DNA of 64,000 bases from the NCBI GenBank assembly GCA_050633245.1, contig JBOEGD010000030.1:153419-217418 (forward strand), in the 5' to 3' direction. Shown one piece after another: positions 2,309 to 62,430 of this stretch; within the stretch, counting starts at the first letter, position 1, and each line of letters begins with the position of its first letter. The position numbers and the translations under genes are program-made. The notes under the pieces were generated by a model, which had not been told where the DNA came from, did no database searches, and saw only the letters and a list, made by a program, of their open reading frames with translations. The DNA is from Calditrichia bacterium. GTDB taxonomy: Bacteria > Calditrichota > Calditrichia > RBG-13-44-9 > J075.

Positions 2309-2312
2309 GATT

Positions 2313-7531: not shown

Positions 7532-7543
7532 CTGAGAGTCAAA

Positions 7544-11640: not shown

Positions 11641-11675
11641 AGAAAAAGCCGGGTAGAAAATGTTTTCCACCCGGC
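11641..11675 (-). terminator. Intrinsic terminator downstream of the HMA gene
   Basis: Imperfect gccgggtagaaaa/ttttccacccggc stem followed by a T-run on the minus strand. Confidence 0.6.
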
Positions 11676-11705
11676 CACAAAAAATTGTAAATACATGCTC
11701 AAGTT

Positions 11706-12026: not shown

Positions 12027-12133
12027 AAGAACCTCATCTATTGAATAATCAAAAAATGGAAAAGCTTCAAAAATTAAATTAAGCTGTGCAAAATAAGAAA
12101 GCAACCAACAAACAGATTAGAATTTCACATAAA

Positions 12134-12916: not shown

Positions 12917-12959
12917 GCGTCCTCCCTGTGCATAAGTGACAAGACAAAAGAATAAGAAC

Positions 12960-46214: not shown

Positions 46215-46352
46215 TCCCATCATTTTGTTTCTGCTAAACCCTCCTTCATCATCCGTCGATACTCCTGAAACACGTCCATAACAATTATGGATCGGTATTA
46301 ATATGGGAACAGGATGACCCAAATAAAAACATACTCAATCTGGAGGTTTACC

Positions 46353-49300
46353 ATGGATGGATCCTTGATACGGATCTGGGTTGTATCAATTTTGATGATC
46401 TGTGCTACAGTTGGCTGGGCGCAGCAAAAGCAAATTTCTGCCCAACAGGCGATTGACAAAGCACTAACATTAACCACGCCGGAAGTTGGAGTAAATGACT
46501 TTCGTGTAAGTGATATGGGCCCAAATGGCAACGGTGCTTTTGATGCGTTTACAGCAGCAGTTGCCTACAACAGCCTGGACAATGAATATCTCGTTGTTTG
46601 GTCTGGTGATGACGAAAAAAATGAAGAGTTTGAGATCTGGGGACAGCGTATTGATGCTGCTACCGGGGAAGAAATCGGAGTAAATGACTTTCAAATCAGT
46701 GATGTGGGACCGGATGAGCAAATAAACTTTGATGCGTTTGAGCCTGCGGTTGCCTACAACAGTGTGAATAATGAGTATCTTGTGGTCTGGTATGGTGATG
46801 ATGACCAGGGGACATTGGTTAATGATGAGCTGGAAATCTTTGGTCAACTTCTTGCCGCTGATGGAACAGAGCTTGGTGACGATGATTTTCGCATTAGCTC
46901 GATGGGCACCGACGGATCACTTGATGCCTCAGCACTGTCTCCGGATGTAGCATTTAGCAATGATGACAACATGTTTATCGTTGTCTGGCATGGCGATGAC
47001 GCGTCGAATGGAACAATTGATGATGAATTTGAGGTATTTGCTGCCGCCGTAAGTGCCGCCGGAAATATTCAAAATATGGACGATATTCGTTTGAGTGATA
47101 TGGGCCCCGATGGTGATGAGAATTATGCCGGCTTGAATGCTGCTGTTAGTTATAACTCAGTTGAAAGTGAATTCCTGGTTATTTGGGAAGGCGATGATAA
47201 TAGTGGCTCGCTTACGGAAAGTGAGTTTGAAATTTTTGGCCAGCGTTTCGATGCCAGCCTGCTTTCCGAAGTGGGAGCGAATGACTTTCGCGTAAGCGAT
47301 CAGGGATCTGATGGTGATCAAAGTATTGATGCTAATAGTCCGGCGATCGTTTTCAATAGCATCGATAATGAGTATCTTGTCGTTTGGCAAGGCGATAGCG
47401 AGACGCCACCACTGGTTAATCAGGAGTTGGAAATCTACGGTCAACGCCTCGATGGCACGTCTGGTATTCCTGTTGGTGAAACTAACTTTCGCATCAGCGA
47501 TATGGGTCCGGATGGGCAAACAAACTATGCCGCAATTAATGCAGCCGTTACGTTTAATCAAACGACCGGAGAATATCTTGTTGTTTGGGAAGGCGATGAT
47601 GACACCATTCCGTTAGTTGACGATGAGCTGGAAATTTTTGGCCAGTTTTTGGATGCTTCAGGTGAGGCATTTGGTATCAATGACTTTCGCATCAGCGATA
47701 TGGGTCCGGATGGGGATAGTGGATTTCTGGCATTTAATCCTGCATTATCCTATAATAGCGCCAACAATACGTTCCTTACTGTTTGGGAAGGCAAAGATCT
47801 GAGTAATACAATTACTGAAATCGAAATCTATGGCCAGCAGCTTGCCGCAACTCCTGTGGCACCGCAAGGACTTTCTGCTGCTCCTGAACAGCTTGAAGTA
47901 CAACTTAGCTGGAATCAGTTTAGCGGCGAAATCGCACAGTTCTACATTTATCGTGGTGTGACTGCCGGTGTCTTGACGCTTGTAGATAGCACGTCCGGTG
48001 ATAATTTGGAATATTCAGATCTATTTGTAAATGAACTAACCCAATATTATTATCAAATTTCTGCCCTTGGCACAAATGGCTTCGAGGGTGATAGATCCGG
48101 TGAAGTGAATGCAATGCCGCTCGATGCTAATGCACCGTCCGCTCCACTTGGTCTTCAAGCTGACGCTGGTAATTTTCTGATAGACTTAAATTGGGATGCC
48201 AATCCGGAAGTTGATATGGCTCATTATACGCTTTATCGGAATACGGAGGAAGATTTCTCCACTGCTGAAAAAATCGCTCGGCTTTCTTCTGAGAGCTTAA
48301 CCTATCGAGATAGCAGTCTGGTTGGTGGAGCGGACTTTATTTATTGGCTTACAGCAGTTGATATCTCGGGAAATCAAAGCGCCTCCAGCAACTCTGCATC
48401 GGCAACAGCGATGGACAATATCGCTCCAAGTGCCCCTCAGGAACTAACCGCTGCTGGAGACAACTCTTTGGTTACGCTTAACTGGCTGGCGAATACAGAG
48501 AGCGACTTGGCAGGCTATAAATTATTGCGTAGCGAAGAGAGCTCGCCGGCAACTGCCCAGGATCTTGCAATTATTGACAAGTCTCAAACGACATTTAATG
48601 ATCTTCGTGTGGAGAATGGGAATACGTATTATTATTGGCTGCAAGCCTTTGACTTTTCCGGGAATGAAAGTGCATTTAGCCTTAGTGTCAGCGTTATGCC
48701 GTTCGATGCTGCACCATCTCAACCTGTCTTTGCGGATGTGATAGGAACGGATCAACGCGTTGAGTTAAACTGGCAGATTAATCCTGAAGCCGATTTGCAG
48801 TTCTATTCACTTTATCGAAATGACGAGAACGATCCTACTGAAGCGACTAAAATTGGTCAGTTCGATCATCCGGGAAACTCTTATGTTGATGAATATGTTG
48901 AAAACGGTTTAGTATACTTTTATTGGCTTGTAGCAACAGATATGGGTGGAAATGAAAGCGAGCGTAGCGCTTCTGCCACTGCGATGCCTCAGGATAATGT
49001 TGCCCCGTCGGCTCCGGAAAACCTCTCTGCAAATGGTGGTTCCGGAGTTGTGGAACTGGCATGGCAGGTTAATGAAGAAGAAGATGTGCAAAACTATATT
49101 GTCTATCGCAGCTCGTCTTCTCCGATAATTCCGACGGATACGATAGCCGTTGTTAGTCATCCAATAGTAATGTTTACAGACAGCTCAGCGATACCGGAAA
49201 CTGAATATTACTACTGGGTTGCCGCTGTTGATGTGAACGGAAACGAAAGCTCGCTAAGTATCTCAGCTACAGCAATCGCTTCACCGCTGGTTGGCATCAA

Positions 49301-49598
49301 CACGTTAACAGGAGTTCCGACAGCATTTGAACTCTATCAAAATTTCCCGAATCCATTTAATCCATCCACAACAATTACTTTCGATTTACCAACGAATGAA
49401 GTAGTACAGCTTGCAATCTACAATATGCTTGGGCAGGTTGTTCGTATTTTGGTGGCGGAAGAGTTACCAGCAGGTCGCGTCAGCGTAACCTGGGATGGTG
49501 CTAACGAGTTTGGTGAACGATTGTCCAGCGGTGTTTATCTTTATCGCATTGAGGCTGGCAATATTGTTCAAACCCGTAAACTGGTTATGATGAAATAG
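46353..49598 (+). CDS. Large secreted protein: 7 acidic ~66-aa repeats + 5 FN3 domains + T9SS/FlgD-like C-terminal sorting domain
   Basis: Signal peptide; repeats NDFRISDMGPDG...YNS..NEYLVVW.GDD...EIFGQ; AP.AP..L FN3 units; LYQNFPNPFNP...SGVYLY tail. Confidence 0.85.
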   Translation: MDGSLIRIWVVSILMICATVGWAQQKQISAQQAIDKALTLTTPEVGVNDFRVSDMGPNGNGAFDAFTAAVAYNSLDNEYLVVWSGDDEKNEEFEIWGQRIDAATGEEIGVNDFQISDVGPDEQINFDAFEPAVAYNSVNNEYLVVWYGDDDQGTLVNDELEIFGQLLAADGTELGDDDFRISSMGTDGSLDASALSPDVAFSNDDNMFIVVWHGDDASNGTIDDEFEVFAAAVSAAGNIQNMDDIRLSDMGPDGDENYAGLNAAVSYNSVESEFLVIWEGDDNSGSLTESEFEIFGQRFDASLLSEVGANDFRVSDQGSDGDQSIDANSPAIVFNSIDNEYLVVWQGDSETPPLVNQELEIYGQRLDGTSGIPVGETNFRISDMGPDGQTNYAAINAAVTFNQTTGEYLVVWEGDDDTIPLVDDELEIFGQFLDASGEAFGINDFRISDMGPDGDSGFLAFNPALSYNSANNTFLTVWEGKDLSNTITEIEIYGQQLAATPVAPQGLSAAPEQLEVQLSWNQFSGEIAQFYIYRGVTAGVLTLVDSTSGDNLEYSDLFVNELTQYYYQISALGTNGFEGDRSGEVNAMPLDANAPSAPLGLQADAGNFLIDLNWDANPEVDMAHYTLYRNTEEDFSTAEKIARLSSESLTYRDSSLVGGADFIYWLTAVDISGNQSASSNSASATAMDNIAPSAPQELTAAGDNSLVTLNWLANTESDLAGYKLLRSEESSPATAQDLAIIDKSQTTFNDLRVENGNTYYYWLQAFDFSGNESAFSLSVSVMPFDAAPSQPVFADVIGTDQRVELNWQINPEADLQFYSLYRNDENDPTEATKIGQFDHPGNSYVDEYVENGLVYFYWLVATDMGGNESERSASATAMPQDNVAPSAPENLSANGGSGVVELAWQVNEEEDVQNYIVYRSSSSPIIPTDTIAVVSHPIVMFTDSSAIPETEYYYWVAAVDVNGNESSLSISATAIASPLVGINTLTGVPTAFELYQNFPNPFNPSTTITFDLPTNEVVQLAIYNMLGQVVRILVAEELPAGRVSVTWDGANEFGERLSSGVYLYRIEAGNIVQTRKLVMMK

Positions 49599-49646
49599 CC
49601 ATTCGAACATTTTTCTATTGGCACGCAAAGCTGATAAAAATGACCC

Positions 49647-49684
49647 AAAATCTCCTCACATGTGTTGTGAGGAGATTTTTTTTT
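49647..49684 (+). terminator. Intrinsic terminator
   Basis: aaaatctcctcaca-tgtgt-tgtgaggagatttt followed by a T-run. Confidence 0.88.
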
Positions 49685-49753
49685 CAAAAAATGTTCACTT
49701 TTTTCTAAGATATAGTACAGTCCCCTTCATCCAATCTAATTGAGGAGAATAAT

Positions 49754-50176
49754 ATGACGTGCATTAAAATTTTGCATAACTTGCCGTCAGGGAATGACCA
49801 CTGTGATAATATTCGTGAGTTAGCGCTGGATGTGCTTTGGAGTTACCTGAGCAACAAATCGTCAATTGGGATCGGGTTTCGCCGCAGCTGTAATATTGCT
49901 GGTTTTGATATTGACTTTTTCTCTCCGGAGGGCGGAGTAATTGTGCAGGTATGTGGCGATGCTGAATTCGACAGGCTACGAATGGTTATGGACGCCTTTA
50001 ACGAAATGATGTTGCGACGTTTGGGGTTTGAGGTGCTTTATATAAGCAGCGAAGATGTTTTACTTCGCTGCCAGGATGTGCTTATGGATGTTTCAGCGCT
50101 TATCAACATCAACAACACGAGTCAGGTCGTTCATTCCTTTTCAACCGGAACTTCTAAGGCGGAAATCCGCGATTGA
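49754..50176 (+). CDS. DUF559/Vsr-like protein, degenerate
   Basis: LW..L....GIGFRR...IAGFDIDF, L...GFEVL. The IEVDG..H motif is replaced by VQVCGDAE. Confidence 0.55.
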   Translation: MTCIKILHNLPSGNDHCDNIRELALDVLWSYLSNKSSIGIGFRRSCNIAGFDIDFFSPEGGVIVQVCGDAEFDRLRMVMDAFNEMMLRRLGFEVLYISSEDVLLRCQDVLMDVSALININNTSQVVHSFSTGTSKAEIRD

Positions 50177-50778
50177 GCATATGCAATATGCATATCCAGG
50201 TTAACCGGTGCATATTCTACAAAGCCACGGAAAGCCAGTAAGGCCTCGTCGAATCGCTCCAGCTTTTCGCAGGCTAGTGCCTTGTTGAAATAGGCTTCAT
50301 AATAGTCTTCTCTTAGTTCGATGGCTTTATCGCGGTCGGAAATTGATTCACCAAATCGTCCCAAATCATAGTAAGTAATGCCGCGGTTGTTGTAGGCCAG
50401 GGCGAACGTAGGGCCTTCAATAATGGCACTGTCTTGTTCTGCTAGTTTTGCCGGCAGGTTTCCCTCATTGCCATGTTGAATGGCGCGGAATAAATGCAAT
50501 CCGGCTTTTTCGGAAATTTGCTTTTCTAAAACCGCTTGGGTTATCTGCAGACTGGTTTGTGATGGAATGTTATTGGAATCCGTTTGTACAGCCTGCAGAA
50601 ATGCCTTTTCGGCGCGAACAAAATGTCCGGATAGTGCGCTGGCTAATCCTGTTTCGTAGCTGTTTTGCAGCGACACCGGAATTTCAGCTGTAGTCTCTTC
50701 TATTTGTCCGCAGGAAAAAATAAGAAACAGGCAACTTATATAGCTTAGGGCGAAATATCGAATGTGTTTCGAAAACAT
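50131..50778 (-). CDS. TPR-repeat lipoprotein
   Basis: IFS-C lipobox; AYNNRG, AYFNKA TPR motifs. Confidence 0.8.
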   Translation of the reverse strand: MFSKHIRYFALSYISCLFLIFSCGQIEETTAEIPVSLQNSYETGLASALSGHFVRAEKAFLQAVQTDSNNIPSQTSLQITQAVLEKQISEKAGLHLFRAIQHGNEGNLPAKLAEQDSAIIEGPTFALAYNNRGITYYDLGRFGESISDRDKAIELREDYYEAYFNKALACEKLERFDEALLAFRGFVEYAPVNLDMHIAYAQSRISALEVPVEKE

Positions 50779-50894
50779 TATGATCCTTAAAAAGTGATAT
50801 TGATATAAGATTGATATATAGGAATATCGACACTTTTTAATCAGAACTATTGTTTTGAATCAAGTATTTAGCGCCGTGTAAATCGAATATGTTA

Positions 50895-51593
50895 TTATCG
50901 TCCTGTACCAAAAAGGATCTTTATAAATGGTCCGCTCATTTCACCGGCCGGTGAGCCGGTTAATGACACGTCATCAGCTTTCCAATCACCACTATATGCG
51001 GTAATATTGTAGCCAAAGCGAATACCAACAGCCATTTTATTCTTCCTATTGGGCGCGATAGGAATATCTATTCCAAATGCTGCGCTAATCAATAAGTGGG
51101 TTTGCGATAGATTGGTGGTAACGCCGGGGGTGGCAAGAAGCTCATCGAAGCTGAGACTGTTGTTTTGTCTGAGGCTTATTTCGCTGATTCCAGCTCCGAT
51201 GCCAGCTAAAGGGTAAAGGCGAATGCTATTATTGTTCAGAATGCTGAAACCCAGCGAGAGCAGTCCATAACTTCCGGATGAGCTGAGTTTTAGGGATTGT
51301 GTAGCATCATCCGTTGTACGCTTTATAATTGCAGCACCTTCGCCACCGATTATCAGGCGTTTGGCAAAAAATAATCCCCCCCCACCGATGGTAATGAATT
51401 TGTCTGCTAACTCAGGATAGTTTGCATCGCTAAGACTGGTGGAAATATCTCCAAAGTCGAACTGCTCTGCGCCTAAAAATAAATAGCCAAAGCCCTGATA
51501 GCGATCGTCTGGCAATCCATATTGAGCAAATGCACTAAAGCTAAAAAAAGACAGGAGTAAAAGAGAGCGAATGATTTGAAAAAGCGATAGCAT
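50895..51593 (-). CDS. Outer-membrane beta-barrel, hypothetical
   Basis: Signal peptide; Gly/aromatic-rich beta strands. Confidence 0.6.
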   Translation of the reverse strand: MLSLFQIIRSLLLLSFFSFSAFAQYGLPDDRYQGFGYLFLGAEQFDFGDISTSLSDANYPELADKFITIGGGGLFFAKRLIIGGEGAAIIKRTTDDATQSLKLSSSGSYGLLSLGFSILNNNSIRLYPLAGIGAGISEISLRQNNSLSFDELLATPGVTTNLSQTHLLISAAFGIDIPIAPNRKNKMAVGIRFGYNITAYSGDWKADDVSLTGSPAGEMSGPFIKILFGTGR

Positions 51594-51784
51594 ACCAGAC
51601 TTCCATAATTGAGATTCGAGGAAATATAGTGGGTGCCAATTTCGGAGGCAAATTAATTATCGGTATGTCGTGGAGTTCTGAATGCTACATGCTATTTGAT
51701 TGTTGCTTTCAGGTTTTGTGCGCTGTATAATCCGATAGACATTTTAACTGTTTTATATTGTATGATGGATGGAAGGAACCAGAG

Positions 51785-52429
51785 ATGATCTCCTGGATAA
51801 AAAAAGGCAACGATGATAAGGCCTCAGAAGAAAACTCCTCTTCGCAGCGAATTAGCGTTACGGATACTGCTCGCGAGAAAATTAACGAGCTCATTCAAAA
51901 TGCTGAAACACCGGTGCTTGGTGTGCGAGTTTTAGCCGAGGCAACTACACCTGTCAATCCGCAATATAGCCTGGCATTTGTCCAGGAAGGTGAAGTGTTT
52001 GACGACGATACCGTAATGGACGTTAATGATTTTAATATCTACATTGATGGTGATAGCTTACCACATGTAAACGGTGTCGAACTTGATTTTATTACAACAC
52101 AGATGGGTGGTGGTGGTTTTCGCATTCAAAAGCCAACCCTAATTCCTAACCTGAAGGGCGAAGTTGCCGAAAAGCTGCAAAAGGTGATTGCTGATCAGAT
52201 CAACCCTGCTTTGGGTATGCACGGTGGACATATTACTTTGATAGATGTAAAAGATAACAAAGCATATATCGAATTAGGCGGCGGCTGCAAGGGATGTGGA
52301 ATGGTCGACGTGACGTTGAAAAACGGCATTGAAACTCTCATTACCCAAAACGTGCCTGAAATAACAGAAGTATTAGACACCACCGATCATGCTTCGGGCG
52401 ACAATCCATACTATCAACCATCCAAATAG
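51785..52429 (+). CDS. nfuA: Fe-S biogenesis protein NfuA (degenerate A-type domain + NifU-C domain)
   Basis: INPALGMHGG, GGGCKGC, TDHASGDNPYY. Confidence 0.9.
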   Translation: MISWIKKGNDDKASEENSSSQRISVTDTAREKINELIQNAETPVLGVRVLAEATTPVNPQYSLAFVQEGEVFDDDTVMDVNDFNIYIDGDSLPHVNGVELDFITTQMGGGGFRIQKPTLIPNLKGEVAEKLQKVIADQINPALGMHGGHITLIDVKDNKAYIELGGGCKGCGMVDVTLKNGIETLITQNVPEITEVLDTTDHASGDNPYYQPSK

Positions 52430-52444
52430 ACCGCGAATAGCTAT

Positions 52445-53827
52445 ATGTCGCGCGTTGCCCTGATCTCAACATACGAAATAGGACGCCAACCTTTTGGGTT
52501 GGCCTCGCCGGCGGCCTGGTTACGGAAGGACGGTTTCAACGTCACTTCTGTAGACTGTGCTGTTCAACCTTTTCCCGATCAGCTCATTCAGCAAGTTGAC
52601 GTTGCAGCTTTTTACATGCCGATGTATACTGCTGCAAGGTTGTCTGTCCCGCTTATTCGTCGCGCTCAAAAGTTAAACCCGGAGCTGATTGTAATTGCTT
52701 ACGGTCTTTATGCACCGGTCAACGAGGCTTTTTTTCGCAAGCTTGGTGTCCAGAATATTGTCGGAGCCGAATTCGAAGCCCCATTGCTGGAACTCTGTCG
52801 AAATATTCGTGCTGGGGATATCGTCGAAGAAACAGTTGTATCGCTAGAGCGTCAGCAGTTTTTAACTCCATTTCGGGACGACTTGCCGGAACCCGGGAAT
52901 TATGCTGCCCTTTGCGAAGAGGGTTGCGCTGCAAAGACCACCGGATATACGCAAACAACTCGTGGCTGTTTGCATACATGTCGACATTGCCCAATTGTGC
53001 CGGTATACAATGGAGCGTTTCGAGTCGTACAAAAAGATGTCGTATTGGCAGATATCCGGCAGCAGGTTGTACGTGGAGCTCAACATATTACGTTTGGCGA
53101 CCCTGATTTTTTTAATGGGCCGGGACATGTTTTACCTATCGTTAAACAAGTTCATGCTGAGTTTCCTGATATAACGTATGATGTGACGATTAAAATTGAG
53201 CATTTGCTTAAATATGAAAAGTATTTGCCGGTTTTGCGAGATACCGGGTGCGCATTTGTGACCAGTGCGGTCGAGGCAGTCGAAGACTCTATTTTACAGA
53301 TTTTTGACAAAGGCCATACGCGGGAAGACTTTGTTCGCACTGTAGAAATTATGGATGCGTACCAGCTTCGATTAAATCCAACGTTTGTAACGTTTACACC
53401 CTGGACAACACTACAGGGATATCGCAGTATGCTTTCTCTACTGGCAGAGCTCGGTTTAATCGAGGGCGTTTCACCGGTTCAATTAGCAATTCGCTTGCTA
53501 ATTCCCGCAGGGTCTAGGTTACTGGAAGTTCCGGATATAGAGGAATCACTTGGAGAGTTTCGAGAGGAGCAATTAGGGTACGAATGGCAGCACAGCGATA
53601 AACGCGTAGATGGTTTGCAAAAAGCTTTAATGGATCTTTTAGGATCAAAAAACTTGGGTAGGAGAGAATACTTTCTGACTGCATGGAAGATGGTGAATGC
53701 ATTATTGAAAGAGGATATTGCGCTCCCTGAAAGCAAACGATCTCGACAAAGAGCAACGGTACCGTATTTAAATGAGCCATGGTATTGTTGAGCTGAGCCA
53801 TCGGAAGAGCAGTTTGCTCGATTATAG
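52445..53827 (+). CDS. CUAEP-tail radical SAM selenoprotein (UGA at 53789-91 read as Sec)
   Basis: N-terminal B12-binding-like domain and CLHTCRHC. Reading through TGA gives ...PYLNEPWYC-U-AEPSEEQFARL-TAG. Confidence 0.88.
53792..53822 (+). promoter_or_regulatory. Putative bacterial SECIS element
   Basis: ATCG(gaag)AGCA-GTT-TGCT-CGAT stem with a G-starting apical loop ~20 nt after the UGA. Confidence 0.6.
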
Positions 53828-53890
53828 CTGGCCATGAAAAGGCCGAGTATTAATTAAAGGATTATATCAGAATGACATTGGAGTAAATGC

Positions 53891-54121
53891 ATGCTGAGTT
53901 TTTTCAAGAAGAAAAAAGCAGAGGCTGAAGCGGAAGAACGTATTACTATTGTTGCGCAAGTTATTCATGATTCTCCAAGGGCTATCCTGGTAGAGTATAA
54001 GGAGTTAAACGCTTGGCTGCCGCACAGTAAGATTGAGATCGAAGAATTATCGGCTGATAATGAAGTACGCCTTAATATGTCTCCGCGACTCTTTCGCGTG
54101 AAGTTTGGCGGTAGAGATTAA
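53891..54121 (+). CDS. Small hypothetical beta-rich protein
   Basis: GGAG RBS; DSPRAILV...WLPHSKI motif. Confidence 0.65.
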   Translation: MLSFFKKKKAEAEAEERITIVAQVIHDSPRAILVEYKELNAWLPHSKIEIEELSADNEVRLNMSPRLFRVKFGGRD

Positions 54122-54301
54122 TGCTATGCTCTTCGATATTGAAGACTCCTTTGGAGGCCGCTATCTGCAATTTGACCATTTCCGCACCTGGACAATTTTT
54201 CTATAGCCGTTTCATTTTAGAATCATCAGTATTAGCTTCAATTACCCCGTTCCAAAAAAGTTAATCATTGGTTTTTTTGTTCAACACTATCATAAACCTT
54301 G

Positions 54302-54357
54302 CGTTTATTTAATTTGTACAATATATTGCGCAATATATTGTACAAATTAAATAAACG
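54302..54357. promoter_or_regulatory. Perfect 56-bp palindrome (probable MarR operator array)
   Basis: cgtttatttaatttgtacaatatattgc|gcaatatattgtacaaattaaataaacg; the halves are exact reverse complements. Confidence 0.8.
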
Positions 54358-54370
54358 TGAGGATTATTCT

Positions 54371-55705
54371 ATGTCAAGACTTGCCATATTGCTTATAAGT
54401 ATATCTCTTTTTTGCATGATGCCTAAAGCCAGGGTTATTGCTCAGCCCAACTCTGAAATGTCTACGCTGAAAAAAAGCCAGGTGTTAGATTCTTTGGCCA
54501 TTACTCTGAAAAATAATTATGCGTTTCCACAGCGTATTGCTTCTATTGTTGCCAATCTTAAAAAGCGCGAGCAAGAAGGTAATTATACCTCCGCTAAAAC
54601 TCCTGCCGATTTTGCGAATCTTGTTACGATGGATTTGCAGGAAATTACCGAGGATCTTCATTTTCATATCGGTGTTGATCCCAACTGGATTGCTGAACAA
54701 CGTGCTGCGAGCGATCCGGAAATAAAAAAAGCTTTAGCAGAGACTAATGTCTTAAAGGAGCAGCAGAAAAACTATGGATTTGAAGATGTGCGAATTTTAG
54801 AGGGGAATATTGGTTATCTTAATTTTACTTATTTCTCAGATCCCGACTATGCTCATGAAACAGCTGAAGCCGCTATGTATATGTTGGAAAACTCTGATGC
54901 ACTTATTATAGATCAACGGTTCAATAATGGGGGCTATATGGAAATGGCGCAATTATTGGCTAGTTATTTTTTCTCTCCGGAACCAGCTCAGGTGCTGTTT
55001 GATATTTATTATTTTGAAGATGGAAAAAGAATCGACTTAAAAGAATGGGTATTGCCATTTGTCCCTGGGAAACGTATATCTAATAAGCCGTTGTACATAC
55101 TAACAAGCAGCACTACCTTCTCTGCAGGAGAGTGGTTTGCGTATGTTCTTAAAAATCTCGGTCGTGCAACGGTCATCGGTGAACAAACAGCTGGTGGCGC
55201 ACATCCGGTGACTCGCAAACCTATTGATGATCAATTTTTTCTACAGGTACCAATTGGAGAAATAAAAGGGCCGGTTTATCAGCAAGACTTTGAGGGAGAA
55301 GGAGTTCATCCAAATATAGCTACTCCGGCCTATAAAGCATTGGGCACTGCTCATCACCTTGCATTGAAACAGCTTGCAGAAGCAGATTCCACTAAGCAGG
55401 ATGCTGTAGACTGGTATCTGCCTTTGATTGCTGTTCGCACAGAACCGATAAAACTTGAAGAGTCCTCGATTGGTGCAATTGTCGGCGAATATGAAGGGCG
55501 AAAGATTAGATTGGATGGGACTGACCTCATATATTCATGGGGAAGTCGATTTCGCATGCGCTTATTGCCATTGTCGCAAACGCTTTTTGCTCTGGAGGGA
55601 TTCGATGGCTTTCGATTTCAGGTCGTTGTTGCAGATGGAAAAACTACGGGGCTGAAGCGCATTTATCAAGACAAAACAACTCAATTTCATCGGAGAATTA
55701 AATAG
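54371..55705 (+). CDS. Secreted S41 family peptidase (IRBP-like)
   Basis: DLHF, NIGYL, DQRFNNGG, TFSAGE, IGEQTAGGAHP, GEGVHP. GAGGA RBS before ATG 54371. Confidence 0.9.
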   Translation: MSRLAILLISISLFCMMPKARVIAQPNSEMSTLKKSQVLDSLAITLKNNYAFPQRIASIVANLKKREQEGNYTSAKTPADFANLVTMDLQEITEDLHFHIGVDPNWIAEQRAASDPEIKKALAETNVLKEQQKNYGFEDVRILEGNIGYLNFTYFSDPDYAHETAEAAMYMLENSDALIIDQRFNNGGYMEMAQLLASYFFSPEPAQVLFDIYYFEDGKRIDLKEWVLPFVPGKRISNKPLYILTSSTTFSAGEWFAYVLKNLGRATVIGEQTAGGAHPVTRKPIDDQFFLQVPIGEIKGPVYQQDFEGEGVHPNIATPAYKALGTAHHLALKQLAEADSTKQDAVDWYLPLIAVRTEPIKLEESSIGAIVGEYEGRKIRLDGTDLIYSWGSRFRMRLLPLSQTLFALEGFDGFRFQVVVADGKTTGLKRIYQDKTTQFHRRIK

Positions 55706-56221
55706 ATGACAAACAGTACCGGCGCATCAAAAAAATCTGTTAAAATAAAAATTCATGCTCTATCAGACTCATTTTTTCTGGGAAAACGTTCCGATCAATT
55801 GAGCATGCTTATTGAGCAGCAGGTTATTCCGATATTTGAAGATATCGGAATTGTGGTGCCGGTTCGATCCTGCTCACTCGTTGTGGTGCTGGCAGAGTTA
55901 ACTTTTGCTTCTGCCGCTGATCTTGCAAGACAACTGGATCAATCTCACCAGCTGGTTTTGCAGAAGATTCCGGCGTTAGAGCGTTTGAAATTGTTGCGCC
56001 GTCAAAACGATCCGAACGACAAGCGCAGGAAGGTCTTTCAGTTGACATCGGAAGGGCACCAGCAACTGGAGCTTATAAATAAACATATCCGATTGATTGA
56101 ACAGGCATATGAAAAATTGAACGCTGAACTGGGTGTCGATGTGTTTGCGGTATTGGGACGGGCGATAGAAGCGCTTAAAGCAAAGGACCTCTCGACGCGT
56201 ATTGATGAGATAGCTAAATAA
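55706..56221 (+). CDS. MarR family transcriptional regulator
   Basis: wHTH with DPNDKRRKVFQLT; abuts the peptidase stop. Confidence 0.88.
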   Translation: MTNSTGASKKSVKIKIHALSDSFFLGKRSDQLSMLIEQQVIPIFEDIGIVVPVRSCSLVVVLAELTFASAADLARQLDQSHQLVLQKIPALERLKLLRRQNDPNDKRRKVFQLTSEGHQQLELINKHIRLIEQAYEKLNAELGVDVFAVLGRAIEALKAKDLSTRIDEIAK

Positions 56222-56349
56222 TCTTCCACTACTGATGTGAATGCATGTTGAAATCGGTGCTATAATTTAAAATGCAAACGTCGTGTTTGCGCTTCAACCT
56301 CTTTCGGTCAGACAAATACATCAACAGCTATTACAAAGCATAATAAATA

Positions 56350-56799
56350 CTACTGGTTCGCTTTTATTTCAATTCCGAGAGATTTTCGAAGTAGCGTCTC
56401 TGTTTTGGTAAGATCATGTAGGCTATATTTATCAAGCACCGCAATAAATGCCTGGATTGCCTCGTTTAGTATATTTTGTAGCCGACAGTTTGGGGCAATG
56501 CAGCAGGTATTTGTCTCTGGATCAAAACATTCAACAATTTTAAAATCTTCCTCCGTTGTTCTGATAACGGCACCGATATTAATTTCTGTCGGCTTCCTTG
56601 CAAGAAGCAAACCTCCTGAGCGTCCACGGATGGCTTTTACATAACCTGCCTGTTTTAAGCCACTGGCAACCTTCATTAGGTGATTTTTCGAAATATCATA
56701 ACTCGTAGCGATTTCCTTTATCGTTGCAGGCTTGTCAAAATTTAATGCCAGATACAAAAGAACTCGCAAAGAGTAATCGCTGTAAAGTGTTAGGCGCAT
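56350..56799 (-). CDS. nsrR: Rrf2 family NO-sensing repressor NsrR
   Basis: MRLTLYSDYSLRVLLYL, ISKNHLMKV, RGRSGG, C-x6-CC-x4-C. Confidence 0.88.
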   Translation of the reverse strand: MRLTLYSDYSLRVLLYLALNFDKPATIKEIATSYDISKNHLMKVASGLKQAGYVKAIRGRSGGLLLARKPTEINIGAVIRTTEEDFKIVECFDPETNTCCIAPNCRLQNILNEAIQAFIAVLDKYSLHDLTKTETLLRKSLGIEIKANQ

Positions 56800-56861
56800 G
56801 TGCCATCTCCATAAAAGATGTACTTTAAATGTTGCAATTTCCAAGTGATTGACCTAGTTTA

Positions 56862-56884
56862 AAGATATATCTAAAATACTTCTT
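56862..56884. promoter_or_regulatory. NsrR operator
   Basis: AAGATATATCTAAAATACTTCTT resembles the AAGATGCAT-N5-ATRCATCTT consensus; a second half-site lies at 56815. Confidence 0.7.
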
Positions 56885-56913
56885 TTGAAACTTGTTTTCT
56901 TTGGAGTCAAAAT

Positions 56914-57300
56914 ATGAAGAGTGTAGAGATTACAGAAGAGACAATAAAGACGTTGGTAGATCAGTTTTATATTCGCGTGCGGTCTGATAGTGAACTTGGT
57001 CCGGTGTTTAATCAGGCGTTGGGATACTCGGATGAAGAATGGCAACCACACCTCGAACGTATGTATAGCTTCTGGTCTTCTATTATGTTGGCGAGCCGCA
57101 GATATCATGGTAACCCGATTCAAAAGCACCTAAATCTTCCGGCCTTCGATAGAAGTTTGTTCGATCGTTGGTTAGAGCTCTTTTCAGAAACAGCAAATGA
57201 GGTGCATGAGCCTGAAGTCGCGCAAAAATATATAATCAAGGGTCAAAATATTGCGAAAAATTTTAAGCAGATGCTCTATCCAAAAACAGAGGCAAGATGA
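56914..57300 (+). CDS. Group III truncated haemoglobin (trHbP)
   Basis: LVDQFY, LGPVF, WQPHL, FWSS, H...P, FDRWLELF. Confidence 0.92.
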   Translation: MKSVEITEETIKTLVDQFYIRVRSDSELGPVFNQALGYSDEEWQPHLERMYSFWSSIMLASRRYHGNPIQKHLNLPAFDRSLFDRWLELFSETANEVHEPEVAQKYIIKGQNIAKNFKQMLYPKTEAR

Positions 57301-57566
57301 AAACGCTACCGGATTCTGTCAGTTGTTATAATACAACAGCCGTGTTTACAGAAGACACGATGCCTGAGGGAATAAAAAAAGATCATTTCACAAAAAGGGG
57401 AACGTGGGGCATCATCCGCGTCCATGAAGGTGAGTTGGAATATGTTACCGGAAATGGAAAAACCCACATTTTAAACTCCGAAAAACCAGGCTTGATTGAA
57501 CCAGAGGTTAAGCATTTTGTCAAACCTCGGGGCGCCGTTGTCTTTCATCTTGAATTTTATAAATAG
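57297..57566 (+). CDS. DUF1971 (TehB/YeaR-like cupin)
   Basis: HFTKRGTWG, GELEY, IEPEVKHFV, LEFY; ATGA overlap with trHb. Confidence 0.88.
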   Translation: MKTLPDSVSCYNTTAVFTEDTMPEGIKKDHFTKRGTWGIIRVHEGELEYVTGNGKTHILNSEKPGLIEPEVKHFVKPRGAVVFHLEFYK

Positions 57567-57623
57567 TCTACTATTGAAAACGATATTATATTTTGCTGCC
57601 GTGAATAGACTTTAGGGGATTAC

Positions 57624-58160
57624 ATGCTTCGCTTTATTATGTTTCTTTTTATGACCGCATCAGGACCTTTGCTCTTCAGCTGTTCGGGAGACCATGAAAA
57701 TTCCGATTATGATGCAGCTGAACATCATACTGAGGAAGATCATCACGGACATGACACTGAAAGTATCGTAAGGCCGGAAACGCTTCAATTACCTGAGAAC
57801 CTGGCGGCTGTACTAAGAATGGAAATGATCGAGATCTCGAATAATATGGGGCCATTGCTGGATCATCTTTCTCGCGGCAATAGCGCTGAAGCAGCAAGTA
57901 TCGCCGATAAAATTCAAAATAGCTTTATTTTGAAACAACAGCTTTCTTCGGATGAATTAAAAGAGCTGGTTAGCCTTTTGCCCACAGATTTTGTAACGCT
58001 TGATCGTGCGTTCCACGGTGATGCAGGAAAATTAGCAGGCGCAGTGCGCAAAAACGACTTCACATCAGCGGCCGCGCTGTATAGCAAAATGGCGGTTGCC
58101 TGCGTTGCCTGTCATGGCAAATACGCAACGAATCGCTTTCCCGGCTTATTGCCTCATTAA
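57624..58160 (+). CDS. Cytochrome c'-like lipoprotein with His-rich linker
   Basis: LFS-C lipobox, EHHTEEDHHGH, helical body, C-terminal CVACH. Confidence 0.8.
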   Translation: MLRFIMFLFMTASGPLLFSCSGDHENSDYDAAEHHTEEDHHGHDTESIVRPETLQLPENLAAVLRMEMIEISNNMGPLLDHLSRGNSAEAASIADKIQNSFILKQQLSSDELKELVSLLPTDFVTLDRAFHGDAGKLAGAVRKNDFTSAAALYSKMAVACVACHGKYATNRFPGLLPH

Positions 58161-58277
58161 GCACTGTGTTTGTATCCGGATTCTTTGTGACTTGATAGTG
58201 GGAATCTGGTTTGCGTCTTTCTTTTTTATCAATGCGTCTTATCTTTAAATCACGCATTTCTATGAAAAGGAGCTCGC

Positions 58278-59423
58278 ATGGCGAACAACAAGCAGTCTTT
58301 GGATACACTTTTAGCACAAGCCGGACATCAAATTGATCCGACAACAGGTGCAATTAACCCGGCAATCCACCTTTCTACCACCTTTGCTCGCGACAAAAAT
58401 TACGAGCTCATTGGCAACTATATTTACGGTCGCTATCAAAACCCAACCTACGATCCTGTTGAACAGCTTATGGCGCAGCTTGAAGAAGGTGCGGAAGCGT
58501 TGGTCTTTGCATCGGGAATGGCTGCATTGTGTGCGGTATTTGAAACGTTGAACAGTGGAGACCATGTTGTTGCTCCGCAGATTATGTATCATGGTGGGCA
58601 GGATTGGTTACGTCGTATTTCGGAGAAGCGCGGGATTGGGTTAACATTATTTGATCAAAGGCAGGAAGGTGCTCTTGCTGGGGCAATTATTCAGGGTAAG
58701 ACGAAAATCGTCTGGATCGAGTCACCAGTCAATCCCACCTGGGATGTAATCGATATTGCTGCTTCAGCAAAGATCGCGCATGAGGCCGGCGCTGCTCTTG
58801 CAGTTGATTGCACGGTTGCACCTCCGGTTACCACAAAGGCACTTACTCTTGGCGCCGACTTGGTGTTTCATTCCGCGACCAAATACCTTGCTGGTCATAG
58901 TGATGTTTTAGCCGGAATGCTTGTTACGCGGGAACTTGATGAGCGTTGGGAAGATATAAAGCAGGTACGCAAGTTCGTTGGCGGCGTTATTGGTCCCGTT
59001 GAAGCCTGGCTTTTACTACGCGGTATGCGCACGTTGTCTTTACGATTTGAAAGAGCATCGCAAAATGCCCTGAAAATTGCGCGTCATTTTGAACATCATT
59101 CACGTATCGAAAAAGTGCTTTATCCTGGCTTGAAAAATCATCCGGGACATGCCATTGCAAGCAAGCAGATGACCGGAGGATTTGGTGGTATGTTATCGAT
59201 GTTAGTAGATGATGACGAGGCAGCAAGTCAAAAAATTGCTACACGTCTTCGCTGCTTTATTGTGGCAACATCGCTCGGTGGCATTGAGAGCCTTGTAGAG
59301 CACCGAGCGTCAGTTGAAGGACCCCGTAGTCAAGTGCCCAAAAACCTGCTGCGGTTTTCTATAGGGATTGAGGCTCCACATGATTTAATTGCAGACCTTG
59401 AACAAGCGCTTGAAAAGTCGTAA
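58278..59423 (+). CDS. Cystathionine gamma-synthase/lyase family PLP enzyme
   Basis: YGRYQNPT, SGMAA, ESPVNP, HSATKYLAGHSD, SLGGIES. Confidence 0.92.
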   Translation: MANNKQSLDTLLAQAGHQIDPTTGAINPAIHLSTTFARDKNYELIGNYIYGRYQNPTYDPVEQLMAQLEEGAEALVFASGMAALCAVFETLNSGDHVVAPQIMYHGGQDWLRRISEKRGIGLTLFDQRQEGALAGAIIQGKTKIVWIESPVNPTWDVIDIAASAKIAHEAGAALAVDCTVAPPVTTKALTLGADLVFHSATKYLAGHSDVLAGMLVTRELDERWEDIKQVRKFVGGVIGPVEAWLLLRGMRTLSLRFERASQNALKIARHFEHHSRIEKVLYPGLKNHPGHAIASKQMTGGFGGMLSMLVDDDEAASQKIATRLRCFIVATSLGGIESLVEHRASVEGPRSQVPKNLLRFSIGIEAPHDLIADLEQALEKS

Positions 59424-59476
59424 ACTGCTGCGCTCTAATTATATTCGCATTCAAAACTTTACACGGATCTTACTAC

Positions 59477-60223
59477 ATGACAAACCTTTATTCTCGACTG
59501 CTTTTGATAACACTCTTTTGCCTTACTGGCAGCTCTCTTGCTCAGGAATCGTATGCAAAGTTCTGGATTGAAATTGATGGCGCTTTTCAAGGTGTTGACG
59601 GAAGCGGCTTAGGAAGCTTTGATGTAACTCGTCCATTAGCTGAAACTTCTACCGCAGGGCAAAGAGTAACTGTTGCTCAATTGGGTCTTGGTTGGGACAA
59701 CACCAACCTAAACGGCTATGGTGCGAAAATAGGTGTGGCATTAGCTCCGGAATTTAGCTTTGCATTGGGATATACTGTTTTTGAGTCAAAATCCTTTACG
59801 CAAAATGAACAGACGAGTGACTTCGATATTAACGCCTATTCTGATTATACTCGAAGAACCCTTAATCTACAGATTGAAGTGTCGCCACCATTGCGCTGGA
59901 TGTATTTGTCTGGCGGTATGGAAATGGCTTTCTCGGATTTGGATTACCGTTCAATCATTGATGCCTCGACCATCATTACCAATGAGCGCTTTGAGAGTGC
60001 AGAAACCAATGCGAAAAACTTCGACACTGGGTTTTACGGTGGATTTGGCCTGAAGATCTTAGATAACAAAATTATTCCCAACCTGGCAATTGTTACGCAG
60101 GCCTCGTTGATCTTTTCTACGCTCAGCACCGAACTCGATGATGAAATTGGCGATGGTGGTGAATCGACGATCACAATGGACGGCGTGCGTTTTGACATCG
60201 GTCTTCGCTATGGGCTGCGTTAA
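59477..60223 (+). CDS. Outer-membrane beta-barrel, hypothetical
   Basis: Signal peptide; terminal strand RFDIGLRY. Confidence 0.6.
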   Translation: MTNLYSRLLLITLFCLTGSSLAQESYAKFWIEIDGAFQGVDGSGLGSFDVTRPLAETSTAGQRVTVAQLGLGWDNTNLNGYGAKIGVALAPEFSFALGYTVFESKSFTQNEQTSDFDINAYSDYTRRTLNLQIEVSPPLRWMYLSGGMEMAFSDLDYRSIIDASTIITNERFESAETNAKNFDTGFYGGFGLKILDNKIIPNLAIVTQASLIFSTLSTELDDEIGDGGESTITMDGVRFDIGLRYGLR

Positions 60224-60226
60224 GCC

Positions 60227-60802
60227 ATGGCGAAATTTGAAGAGCTCCTGAAAGATGTGCGAAGCTGCACAATATGCAAAGATCTGCCGCTTGGGCCTCA
60301 GCCGCTGCTTCAGGTTCACCCCGAGGCGTTTATTTTAATTGCCGGACAGGCACCTGGCCGCAAAACACATGAAATTGGAATTCCCTTTGATGACGCCAGC
60401 GGAAAACGGCTTCGCGACTGGTTAGGAATCGATCGCGATACGTTTTACAACCCTGAAAAAATCGCTATTTTACCGATGGGGTTTTGTTTTCCAGGAACGG
60501 GTAAGGGAGGTGATCTGCCACCACGTGCGGAATGTGCACCTGCATGGAGAGATCAGTTAACGTCGCACTTGCCGAATATTCGTCTAACGCTGGTTATTGG
60601 TCAATATGCACTTGATCATTACTTGGGGAGTCGCCGTAAAAAGAACCTTACGGAGACGGTCAGAGCATGGCAAGAATACCTGCCGGATGTTCTTCCGCTG
60701 CCCCACCCCAGTCCACGCAACAACATTTGGCTGCGAAAAAATCCCTGGTTTGAAACGGACGTGCTTCCGTTTCTTCAGAAAATAGTTCGGGAGAATCTAT
60801 AA
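60227..60802 (+). CDS. Uracil-DNA glycosylase-like protein
   Basis: CTIC, GQAPG, MGFCFPG, HPSPRN. Confidence 0.9.
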   Translation: MAKFEELLKDVRSCTICKDLPLGPQPLLQVHPEAFILIAGQAPGRKTHEIGIPFDDASGKRLRDWLGIDRDTFYNPEKIAILPMGFCFPGTGKGGDLPPRAECAPAWRDQLTSHLPNIRLTLVIGQYALDHYLGSRRKKNLTETVRAWQEYLPDVLPLPHPSPRNNIWLRKNPWFETDVLPFLQKIVRENL

Positions 60803-61435
60803 ATGCACGTTACTGCTGAAGATATCGTTTCTATGGAGCAACGCTATCGCGCGCATTTTGTAAACAGCCTCTCAGGATTTAAAAGTGCCAACCTGGTTGG
60901 CAGTGTCGATAACGCCGGAAACAATAATCTCGCAATCATAAGCTCTGTTTTTCATCTTGGCGCAAATCCACCACTAATTGGCATGATCATTCGCCCGCAC
61001 ACTGCGCCTCGCGGAACCTTTGAGAATATTCTTGCCTCCGGCTTTTATACAATTAACCATGTAAATGCCGATATCTTTGAGAAGGCACATCAAACATCTG
61101 CCCGCTACCGCGAAAGCGTATCGGAATTTCGCGAAGTAGGTTTGACACCTGAGTCTTCAAAGCGACACCCTGCTCCCTATGTGCAAGAGAGTCGATTGAA
61201 AATCGGCGTATTTTTTTGTGAACATAAAACCATCGAGTTAAATGGAACGAATTTGATTATTGGCGAGATCGTTGAAGTCTTAGTAGACGATTCTGTCGTA
61301 AAGGAAGATGGTTTTATCGATATTGAGAGCTTGGATACTGTAGCCGTTTCCGGACTGGATCGTTATCATCAAACCAAAGCGCTTGCCCGATTGAGTTATG
61401 CAAAGCCACACCGCAATCCTGAACGTGTCGATTAA
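60803..61435 (+). CDS. Flavin reductase-like protein
   Basis: NSLSGFKSANL, NLAIISSVFHLG, AHQTSARY. Confidence 0.85.
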   Translation: MHVTAEDIVSMEQRYRAHFVNSLSGFKSANLVGSVDNAGNNNLAIISSVFHLGANPPLIGMIIRPHTAPRGTFENILASGFYTINHVNADIFEKAHQTSARYRESVSEFREVGLTPESSKRHPAPYVQESRLKIGVFFCEHKTIELNGTNLIIGEIVEVLVDDSVVKEDGFIDIESLDTVAVSGLDRYHQTKALARLSYAKPHRNPERVD

Positions 61436-61634
61436 GTTGCAAGTGCCTTTTGCCTCTCACTGAGTATAACCCGAATTTCATAGATTTGTAATTTTAAGAT
61501 TGTAATACACGAGCAATATTATAAGATTACTGCTAAGTTGGCGAGCGAAATGCTCGGCTTACTGACAGGATTGTCATCGCGTTACGATTTATACCTATCT
61601 TCATATCTAAACTTTATACAGGTTTTGGAGTCTT

Positions 61635-62393: not shown

Positions 62394-62430
62394 TTTAGGC
62401 CATGAGAGTGGTACTCTTGTAAGAGGGGTT

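Follow-up and report, generated by a model that had tools for sequence, protein, structure and literature searches.

A radical SAM protein of the CUAEP/CCAEP-tail family with a predicted Cys-Sec dyad in a Calditrichia bacterium

Described relatives and family assignment

The nearest characterised relative of the protein described here is ArsL, the enzyme that makes the C-As bond of arsinothricin during its biosynthesis (bioRxiv 10.1101/2024.02.01.577332; 10.64898/2026.04.29.721666). According to these two preprints, ArsL has six conserved cysteines in a 3+3 arrangement, and each of the three cysteines in the C-terminal CCxxC motif takes part in binding As(III). Deletion of the tail was reported in the former to leave the iron and sulfur content unchanged (10.1101/2024.02.01.577332). 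ArsL cleaves SAM to MTA and a 3-amino-3-carboxypropyl (ACP) radical. The CUAEP/CCAEP-tail radical SAM proteins were named, and called uncharacterised, in a further preprint (Haft 2022, bioRxiv 10.1101/2022.07.06.499078). The same preprint ties CU motifs to heavy-metal/soft-metal and organometallic proteins, with HgcA, SAO-locus proteins and MerT-family members being other CU-motif selenoproteins. These share the vicinal Cys-Sec pair with the present protein, in several cases near the C-terminus, but have unrelated folds and contexts. Full-text literature searches on CUAEP/CCAEP retrieved the Haft preprint only and no reaction in print was found for the family, in agreement with the original prediction, which had held its reaction to be unknown.

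Within the window, which is the whole stretch of 64,000 nucleotides that was analysed, the ORF listing places a forward-strand ORF of 448 amino acids at 52445..53791. It ends with VPYLNEPWYC followed by TGA, with the TGT of Cys448 at 53786-53788 and the TGA at 53789-53791. Reading this TGA as selenocysteine extends the frame by the peptide AEPSEEQFARL up to a TAG at 53825-53827 (tail and true stop at 53792..53827, forward strand), giving a complete coding sequence at 52445..53827 for a protein of 460 amino acids. The read-through protein matched the NCBIfam model NF040546 (CUAEP/CCAEP-tail radical SAM (seleno)protein) with 579.8 bits (E 3.7e-174) against a curated cut-off of 500 bits, residues 4-458 being aligned to positions 1-467 of the 468 in the profile. 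A search of the source genome with the same model returned 573.1 bits in the same frame with one TGA inside. The Pfam Radical_SAM domain was also detected (40.5 bits, cut-off 29.5) together with the cluster motif CX3CX2C (C175-x3-C179-x2-C182, CLHTCRHC) at 52967..52990. The Pfam B12-binding domain scored 19.7 bits against a cut-off of 32.1, and there were weak matches to MiaB/MtaB HMMs. The protein shares with NF040546 the CX3CX2C motif, the WYC-U-AEP tail and a single site occupied by Sec or Cys, and no family-defining feature differs. With the apparent stop codon read as selenocysteine, the gene is a full NF040546 member, and the region 52445-53827 is very probably a selenoprotein gene of that family. 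Both the open frame beyond the TGA and the family had been proposed in the original prediction, and both were borne out by the translation and by a match over nearly the whole profile. This copy does differ from many members in the Acidobacteriota in the length of the tail after Sec, which is 11 residues here and about 20-27 residues ending in FV there.

The second-best family was that of ArsL (NF040542) with 253.9 bits (E 3.3e-75), a score below the curated cut-off of 450 bits, so that kinship with ArsL, as had been suggested, is supported while membership is not assigned. This match covers residues 5-394 only, and the two tails are therefore not demonstrably homologous. The comparison with ArsL, which draws on the HMM match and the two preprints, shows homology over residues 5-394 and three further common features: the CX3CX2C motif, a C-terminal tail rich in Cys, and a 3+3 arrangement of six conserved Cys/Sec positions. 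Exactly six Cys/Sec positions, namely C175, C179, C182, C269, C448 and U449, were invariant in 91/91 full-length members of the NF040546 family. The fourth of the invariant cysteines, Cys269 (codon 53249..53251), may serve as a ligand, as may the vicinal Cys448-Sec449 dyad encoded by TGT-TGA at 53786..53791. Unlike in ArsL, the third extra cysteine lies in the core rather than in the tail, and the RCCLKC (CCxxC) tail of ArsL is absent, the corresponding end being EPWYCUAEPSEEQFARL. The conserved partners also differ, being an amino-acid ligase and NfuA/YggX instead of ArsM/ArsQ. No ars genes were detected among the 17 window ORFs in 46314-63132 scanned with NCBIfam and Pfam, nor among 21 clusters that were annotated from the 40 ORF clusters recurring most often across 81 loci.

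The in-frame TGA and the downstream hairpin

To the decoding of the TGA, three lines of evidence are relevant, namely the codons found at the homologous site, the selenocysteine machinery of the genome and the hairpin downstream. At 93 distinct homologous sites the codons comprised 77 TGA, 12 TGC and 4 TGT, the selenocysteine form thus predominating over the 16 Cys-codon forms. The 61 related genomes yielded 18 matches, of which 15 carried TGA at the site and one TGC, with two being cut off before it; all 16 relatives reaching the site had a C-(U/C)-A-E-P-type tail motif. The motif W(Y/F)C(U/C)xEP was found in 80/80 loci from other phyla. The residues after the site were conserved as (A/S/T/V)EP in the homologues, the tail being kept as AEPT(D/E)EQ(F/L)A in 15 relatives that belong to this bacterium's family and order and AEPxxxQ being conserved across phyla. 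The expectation that homologues would show C or U followed by AEP held in the form of C or U followed by (A/S/T/V)EP, Cys codons standing at 16 of the 93 distinct sites. The family itself is widespread, with more than 592 relatives in one scan of species-representative genomes, and includes members in the Acidobacteriota, Calditrichia, Chloroflexota, Latescibacterota and Actinomycetota, among others.

The source genome was predicted to encode selA, selB, selC and selD, and all four were found with scores above the cut-offs. The genes selA (561 bits) and selB (359.8 bits) are adjacent on one contig, tRNA-Sec scored 71.2 bits and was identified by ARAGORN as tRNA-SeC with the anticodon tca, and selD (358.9 bits) contains an in-frame TGA of its own. 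It should also be noted that the selD gene has a hairpin with the loop GGUC at a similar distance.

A bacterial SECIS is expected as a hairpin shortly 3' of the UGA with a G within the first two bases of the loop. Such a hairpin is present at 53807..53819 on the forward strand, GAGC and GCUC forming a stem of 4 bp with the loop AGUUU, which begins 22 nt after the U of UGA. The stem can alternatively be drawn with 5 bp, leaving the loop GUU with G as its first base. A possible lower stem (ATC 53800-53802 with GAT 53820-53822) was read by eye and was predicted by no fold. Single-sequence folds of 53789-53850 and 53770-53880 were not better than chance when compared with shuffles (z -1.10 and -0.71), with 30/200 and 49/200 shuffles, respectively, folding as well, and an Rfam scan of 53700-53900 with E up to 10 gave zero matches. 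It is the comparative evidence, and not the single-sequence fold, that raises the hairpin above chance. In the 77 distinct TGA homologues the helix was paired at 76.9%, compared with 46.4-54.5% for slid partners, with 58 double-change cells, and the observed values were reached by 0/500 shuffles. The 16 Cys-codon homologues, which served as control, showed 46.4% pairing, a value reached by 219/500 shuffles. At least four contiguous pairs were present in 70/77 TGA forms versus 3/16 Cys forms, the remaining seven TGA forms having a version with a bulged A. A loop of AGUU or AGGU started 22 nt after the U of the UGA in 75/77 TGA forms (60 AGTT and 15 AGGT), and coupled amino-acid changes (E..A, D..V, G..A) preserve the pairing among the TGA homologues. 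The SECIS-like hairpin with a G-starting loop that had been claimed from the single sequence thus stood up, with covariation in the TGA forms and a flat signal in the Cys forms. A GC-rich, terminator-like hairpin at 53829..53845 (forward strand), just after the true stop, was rejected as the SECIS on account of that position, of the distance of about 45 nt between its loop and the UGA, and of its lack of conservation in relatives; as a terminator it is a weak candidate, the consensus scan having found 2 sites versus 2.6 expected by chance.

A genuine stop at this TGA, which would make Cys448 the last residue and the similarity beyond it non-coding, is what gene calling with table 11 returns, and the insignificance of the single-sequence folds would agree with it. 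Such a reading is, however, extremely improbable in view of the in-frame downstream peptide conserved across phyla, the Cys codon replacing TGA at 16/93 sites, the hairpin covariation confined to the TGA forms and the complete Sec machinery of the genome. Global reassignment of TGA was likewise rejected, three other long ORFs of the window ending normally at TGA. On the presence of the Sec machinery, the interchange of TGA with Cys codons ahead of a conserved peptide and the hairpin covariation in TGA forms only, the TGA at 53789-53791 is the predicted selenocysteine codon.

Partner genes and predicted structure

Immediately upstream, ending 16 nt before the start of the radical SAM gene, lies an NfuA-like iron-sulfur carrier gene (51758..52429, forward strand, start codon uncertain). 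It was identified by the Pfam domains NifU and Fe-S_biosyn and by TIGR03341 (147 bits, below the cut-off of 269), and its product has a degenerate A-type domain and an Nfu domain with CKGC. This was the sole NfuA-type gene found in the source genome. Across 81 loci the NfuA-like neighbour was present in 13, and an iron helper, either NfuA-like or YggX, lay beside the radical SAM gene in 46 from several phyla, the two never occurring together. An ATP-grasp ligase was encoded within the flanks of 45/81 loci, its closest solved relative being the L-amino acid ligase BL00235 (3vot, E 2.2e-37). In the source genome, unlike at many NF040546 loci, this ligase is unlinked and lies on a different contig from that of the radical SAM gene; unlinked pairs are common where both genes occur. 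In 61 relatives both genes were present in 17 genomes, the radical SAM gene only in 1, the ligase only in 2 (with weaker matches) and neither in 41. For 121 genomes from the phylum to which genome G061 belongs the respective counts were 18, 1, 3 and 99; all these counts are raw and ignore shared ancestry, and one of the three ligase-only genomes (G088) is flagged as unpublished. A Nonomuraea genome with the Cys form had only weak ligase matches (135 bits). Among the 57 loci whose flanks reached 2.5 kb or more on each side, 14 had none of the four recurrent neighbours, and nothing was found to be shared around 13 inspected loci that lacked all four (Chloroflexota, Actinomycetota and some Acidobacteriota). 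Two further candidate partners were rejected: a 76-aa ORF at 53891-54121, which in tblastn of the loci matched its own locus only, and an MFS transporter following the ATP-grasp gene of the source genome, which had no match in the other loci (the flanks of the relatives being only 1.5 kb). Judged from these sequence patterns, genomic context ties the radical SAM gene to an L-amino-acid-ligase-type ATP-grasp enzyme and to an iron helper as predicted partners.

The AlphaFold2 model of the radical SAM protein had a mean pLDDT of 86.4, with values of 54-63 for the last 30 residues, which have no regular structure before residue 454. In the model, this low-confidence C-terminal tail fits a mobile arm. 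The nearest solved folds were AprD4 (6fd2; E 6.8e-17, TM 0.67-0.70), OxsB (5ul3/5ul4), MiaB (7mjy), MgmA (9ccb) and TsrM (6wte), with RimO also among the nearest. The five named first are radical SAM proteins with an N-terminal Rossmann-like or cobalamin-type domain and were also the best PDB sequence matches; however, identity is only 13-18% and none has a Cys-Sec tail.

Possible chemistry and significance

It is suspected that SelB with Sec-tRNA(Sec) would bind the mRNA hairpin 53807-53819 while the ribosome stands on the UGA at 53789-53791, following the canonical bacterial mechanism. Sec449 would then be inserted and translation would terminate 11 codons later at the TAG. The protein would combine a Rossmann-like domain at its N-terminus with a radical SAM core, and a [4Fe-4S] cluster on C175/C179/C182 would serve the reductive cleavage of SAM. 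The poorly ordered C-terminal arm with C448-U449 could form, with the invariant core Cys269, a soft site of three ligands. At this site a metalloid or chalcogen as acceptor atom, or else a substrate, may be presented to the SAM-derived radical, mirroring the presentation of As(III) by the CCxxC tail of ArsL. That radical may be ACP, as in ArsL, or the usual 5'-deoxyadenosyl radical, the sequence being compatible with either. The product would probably be amino-acid-like and be handed to the co-occurring L-amino-acid-ligase-type ATP-grasp enzyme, and the adjacent NfuA-like protein may supply or repair the iron-sulfur cluster. By analogy with ArsL, chemistry of this kind on a soft atom held by the invariant Cys/Sec is plausible, and the putative binding of a metalloid such as As(III) by the Cys-Sec tail, as first suggested, likewise draws on that analogy; against arsenic speaks that no ars genes turned up among the annotated neighbours. 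The proposal as a whole, from the cluster core and the C269/C448/U449 site to the amino-acid-like product passed to the ligase and the help of the NfuA-like protein, is offered tentatively, as a possibility that falls short of probable. A more specific version, in which the CUAEP/CCAEP-tail enzymes would be ArsL-type transferases, is held to be rather doubtful. Here a radical derived from SAM, be it the aminocarboxypropyl group or some other, would be transferred to a non-arsenic soft atom (Se, S, Te or Sb) on C269/C448/U449, the ligase would convert the new heteroatom amino acid to a dipeptide, and NfuA/YggX would keep the cluster alive.

Two other readings of the invariant residues were weighed. 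The mammalian thioredoxin reductase has a Gly-Cys-Sec-Gly (GCUG) tail, which is a flexible redox arm delivering electrons; it shares the vicinal Cys-Sec with the present protein in an unrelated fold. The dyad could likewise be a redox arm rather than a binding site, cycling between selenolthiol and selenenylsulfide on a flexible tail that hands electrons, or else a hydrogen atom, on to a substrate or the active site. The core would then direct an ordinary 5'-deoxyadenosyl radical at the amino acid or dipeptide with which the ATP-grasp ligase is connected. The low confidence and lack of regular structure of the predicted tail, the invariance of the vicinal Cys-Sec and the replacement of Sec by Cys at 16/93 sites, which is typical of redox selenoproteins, are consistent with this, and the NCBIfam name of YggX, oxidative damage protection protein, would suit a setting of redox stress. 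A two-residue redox couple would, however, leave the third invariant cysteine, C269, superfluous, and in ArsL, the closest relative that has been characterised, the Cys-rich tail serves substrate binding and not redox chemistry (10.1101/2024.02.01.577332; 10.64898/2026.04.29.721666), with CU motifs being linked to heavy-metal and organometallic proteins (10.1101/2022.07.06.499078). This reading is considered unlikely.

The three extra invariant Cys/Sec could instead ligate an auxiliary iron-sulfur cluster which is consumed or damaged in turnover and rebuilt by the NfuA-like or YggX neighbour. LipA and MiaB are sulfur-inserting radical SAM enzymes in which an auxiliary cluster meets this fate, and the nearest solved folds include those of MiaB and RimO, with the weak MiaB/MtaB HMM matches pointing the same way, as does the complementary occurrence of the two helpers beside the gene in 46/81 loci of several phyla. 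Against this, it is rare for neighbouring residues to serve jointly as ligands of a single cluster, and an iron-sulfur helper could benefit any oxygen-sensitive radical SAM enzyme, whether it has an auxiliary cluster or not. The unchanged iron and sulfur content of the tail-deleted homologue ArsL (10.1101/2024.02.01.577332) also argues against it, and the auxiliary cluster is regarded as decidedly improbable.

The NF040546 family is already catalogued, and the window adds one member and an example of an unlinked ligase rather than a new kind of system. Since the standard gene call ends at the TGA, the selenocysteine is lost from the annotation, the gene being shortened by 12 codons that probably include the business end of the enzyme. 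The family is large and mostly Sec-using, and the one relative that has been studied joins carbon to arsenic through unusual radical chemistry. A concrete point of departure for experiments lies in the association with an iron helper and a dedicated amino-acid ligase. If ArsL-type transfer to a non-arsenic soft atom were true, the family would represent a widespread and unrecognised pathway of soil and sediment bacteria.

Selenocysteine decoding at the in-frame TGA

The radical SAM gene (52445-53827, +) was called as an ORF at 52445..53791 encoding 448 aa and ending in ...VPYLNEPWYC, with the TGT codon of Cys448 (53786-53788, +) followed by TGA at position 449 (53789-53791, +). In the raw sequence the frame continues past this TGA as GCT GAG CCA TCG GAA GAG CAG TTT GCT CGA TTA TAG, and translation with TGA read as selenocysteine (U) gives a 460-aa protein with the C-terminus CUAEPSEEQFARL and a stop at 53825-53827. 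The original prediction had described an ORF end of EPWYC-TGA with a continued frame of AEPSEEQFARL-TAG, and since the sequence and the read-through translation agree with it, this description is exact.

Selenocysteine machinery had been expected in the genome, and selA, selB, selD and tRNA-Sec (selC) were all found in G000, the assembly carrying the window (completeness 97.1%). The selA gene (561 bits) adjoins selB (359.8 bits) on contig C20, selD (358.9 bits) carries an in-frame TGA of its own, and the tRNA-Sec (71.2 bits) was assigned by ARAGORN as tRNA-SeC with anticodon tca. A search of 61 related genomes (E<=1e-60) gave radical SAM matches in 18, with TGA at the site in 15, TGC in one and a contig end before the site in two, the peptide beyond the TGA being kept as AEPT(D/E)EQ(F/L)A.... 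In a one-genome-per-species scan that found at least 592 relatives, W(Y/F)C(U/C)xEP was present in all of the best 80 loci retained (80/80). The 93 distinct downstream sequences pooled from both sets comprised 77 with TGA, 12 with TGC and four with TGT; together with the conserved following peptide, these bear out the anticipated alignment of Cys or Sec followed by AEP. TGA is the normal stop of three other long ORFs in the window, so the genetic code is standard. On four agreeing lines, namely the machinery, the homologues, the SECIS element and the genetic code, the UGA at 53789-53791 is almost certainly decoded as selenocysteine, every sequence-level hallmark of such decoding being present in this gene.

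The SECIS hairpin

The hairpin GAGC-AGUUU-GCUC lies at 53807-53819 (+) and may alternatively be read as 5 bp with a loop of GUU. The latter reading has the G-starting loop that had been noted for a SECIS-like hairpin 3' of the UGA, and the hairpin is supported by covariation in the TGA forms. Folded alone, the window hairpin was no better than shuffled sequence, and it had no match in Rfam. When the 77 TGA forms were compared, a helix of seven pairs in the hairpin register was 76.9% paired versus 46.4-54.5% with slid partners, both-side changes numbered 58 cells versus 8-37 in the slid controls, and the observed pairing, double-change and covariation values were matched by 0 of 500 shuffles. 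At least four contiguous pairs close a loop of AGUU... or AGGU... in 70 of these 77 forms, and in the remaining seven an A bulges from this same stem, with coupled amino-acid changes preserving the pairing (GAG..GCU, GAC..GUC, GGG..GCC). The same helix was 46.4% paired in the 16 Cys-codon forms, as in shuffles (219 of 500 reach this value), and the hairpin is retained in just three of them. These three (loci L078, L094 and L101) have a SECIS-type hairpin with a loop of AGAUC or AGGUC; a recent replacement of Sec by Cys would fit this.

The selD gene of G000 (C14:56308-57231, -; locus L009) also encodes a selenoprotein, with one in-frame TGA in a ...KTCG-U-AAKISP loop. Its hairpin, with a loop of GGUC, begins approximately 20 nt past the UGA, a distance resembling that of the radical SAM hairpin.

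Family membership and comparison with ArsL

The read-through protein matched NCBIfam NF040546 ('CUAEP/CCAEP-tail radical SAM (seleno)protein') with 579.8 bits (E 3.7e-174; curated cut-off 500) over profile positions 1-467 of 468, which places it in the family originally proposed. The suggested kinship to ArsL, the nearest characterised relative, was likewise upheld, with NF040542 (ArsL) being the next-best family at 253.9 bits, over residues 5-394 only and under the cut-off of 450; every other NCBIfam family scored below 40 bits. In Pfam, Radical_SAM matched with 40.5 bits and B12-binding was sub-threshold (19.7 versus 32.1 bits). AlphaFold2, given a 13-row alignment, modelled the protein confidently (mean pLDDT 86.4, pTM 0.87) apart from the final 30 residues, which had pLDDT block means of 58, 54 and 63 and lacked regular structure up to residue 453. 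The closest solved folds were AprD4, OxsB, MiaB, MgmA and TsrM (TM at most 0.70, identity 13-18%), in agreement with a PDB sequence search that found no close solved relative.

According to two reports on ArsL (10.1101/2024.02.01.577332, 10.64898/2026.04.29.721666), this enzyme cleaves SAM, which yields MTA together with a 3-amino-3-carboxypropyl species (radical or organometallic), and makes a C-As bond; As(III) is bound by all three cysteines of its C-terminal RCCLKC motif, without which product is lost and SAM cleavage and Fe/S content are kept. Six cysteines are described there as absolutely conserved, three of the cluster and three of the tail. Among 91 full-length NF040546 members, the invariant Cys/Sec positions are exactly six: C175, C179 and C182 of the radical SAM motif (C175-x3-C179-x2-C182), C269, C448 and U/C449. 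The 3+3 count is thus common to both, whereas one of the three extra residues lies in the core in NF040546 and all three lie in the tail in ArsL.

A preprint (Haft, 10.1101/2022.07.06.499078) lists NF040546 as an uncharacterised radical SAM protein among the few CU-motif selenoproteins and ties the CU motif to heavy-metal chemistry; ATP-grasp, YggX, NfuA and DUF169 go unmentioned in it. A full-text literature search on CUAEP/CCAEP returned nothing else of relevance.

Conserved neighbours and possible function

Every ORF of 70 aa or more was clustered across 81 loci (the best 80 of at least 592 relatives plus the window), and 21 recurrent clusters were annotated. An ATP-grasp enzyme with a LAL_C2 domain, which among solved structures is closest to the L-amino acid ligase BL00235 (3vot, E 2.2e-37), was found in 45 of the 81 loci, mainly directly downstream of the radical SAM gene. 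YggX/Iron_traffic was present in 33, an NfuA-like protein in 13 (window included) and DUF169 in nine; NfuA-like and YggX never occurred together (0 loci), and one or other was present in 46. Where at least 2.5 kb was available on both sides (n=57), the counts were 37 for ATP-grasp, 27 for YggX, 11 for NfuA-like and seven for DUF169, with none of the four in 14. By these gene-order comparisons, an amino-acid ligase and an iron helper are conserved associates of the radical SAM gene. The two helpers substitute for one another, with NfuA in Calditrichia, Latescibacterota and Gemmatimonadota and YggX mainly in Acidobacteriota. G000 lacks YggX, and its sole NfuA-type gene (51758-52429, +) ends 16 nt ahead of the radical SAM start. 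A 76-aa ORF directly 3' of the gene (53891-54121) had no family match and no counterpart in the other loci compared.

Judged from gene content, the radical SAM gene is accompanied by the ligase also in genomes where the two are not linked. As raw genome counts uncorrected for shared ancestry, both genes were present in 17 of the 61 relatives, the radical SAM gene only in one (G006, 88% complete), the ligase only in two (G016 and G018, weaker at 274-290 bits) and neither in 41; for 121 genomes of the phylum of G061, taken as Acidobacteriota, the respective counts were 18, one (G098), three (G088, flagged unpublished, G103 and G142) and 99. A Nonomuraea genome with the Cys form had only weak ligase matches. 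The G000 ligase is intact (C5, 41231-42463, 530.6 bits). After it comes an MFS transporter that none of the other loci compared was seen to carry. The surrounding locus (L131, C5:33000-51000) also holds a ThiF-family E1-like gene (11612-13749, -) and a Prok-E2_E plus Multiubiquitin gene (1650-7575, -), suggesting a prokaryotic ubiquitin-like conjugation set, as well as a CHAT-TPR protein and a CHASE2 Ser/Thr kinase.

By analogy with ArsL and arsenite, it is tentatively proposed that the flexible Cys-Sec arm and C269 might together bind a soft atom, or a substrate, at the radical SAM active site, with the product possibly passing to the amino-acid ligase. Arsenic specifically is not favoured as the held atom, because no ars genes were found among the 17 window ORFs scanned (46314-63132) or in the 21 annotated recurrent neighbour clusters. 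It is rather unlikely that the Cys-Sec tail acts as a redox arm like that of thioredoxin reductase. A further reading, in which NfuA or YggX would tend an auxiliary Fe-S cluster that may be sacrificial, is quite unlikely.

Elsewhere in the window, 56350-58160 has the look of a unit for nitric-oxide or iron stress. It holds an Rrf2-family regulator on the minus strand, closest in NCBIfam to RirA and NsrR (under cut-off for both), and, divergent from this gene, ORFs 56914-57300, resembling a bacterial globin, and 57624-58160, weakly matching cytochrome c'. A 1094-aa protein (46314-49598) combines fn3 and FlgD-Ig domains and a PelI-like stretch with a C-terminal sorting domain of the T9SS, in keeping with the Calditrichia (FCB group) origin to which the closest loci point.

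Particular to the window copy are its short tail, NfuA-type helper and unlinked ligase. NF040546 is already known, being NCBI-curated and mentioned in print, and the window copy is thus an ordinary member of a known family.
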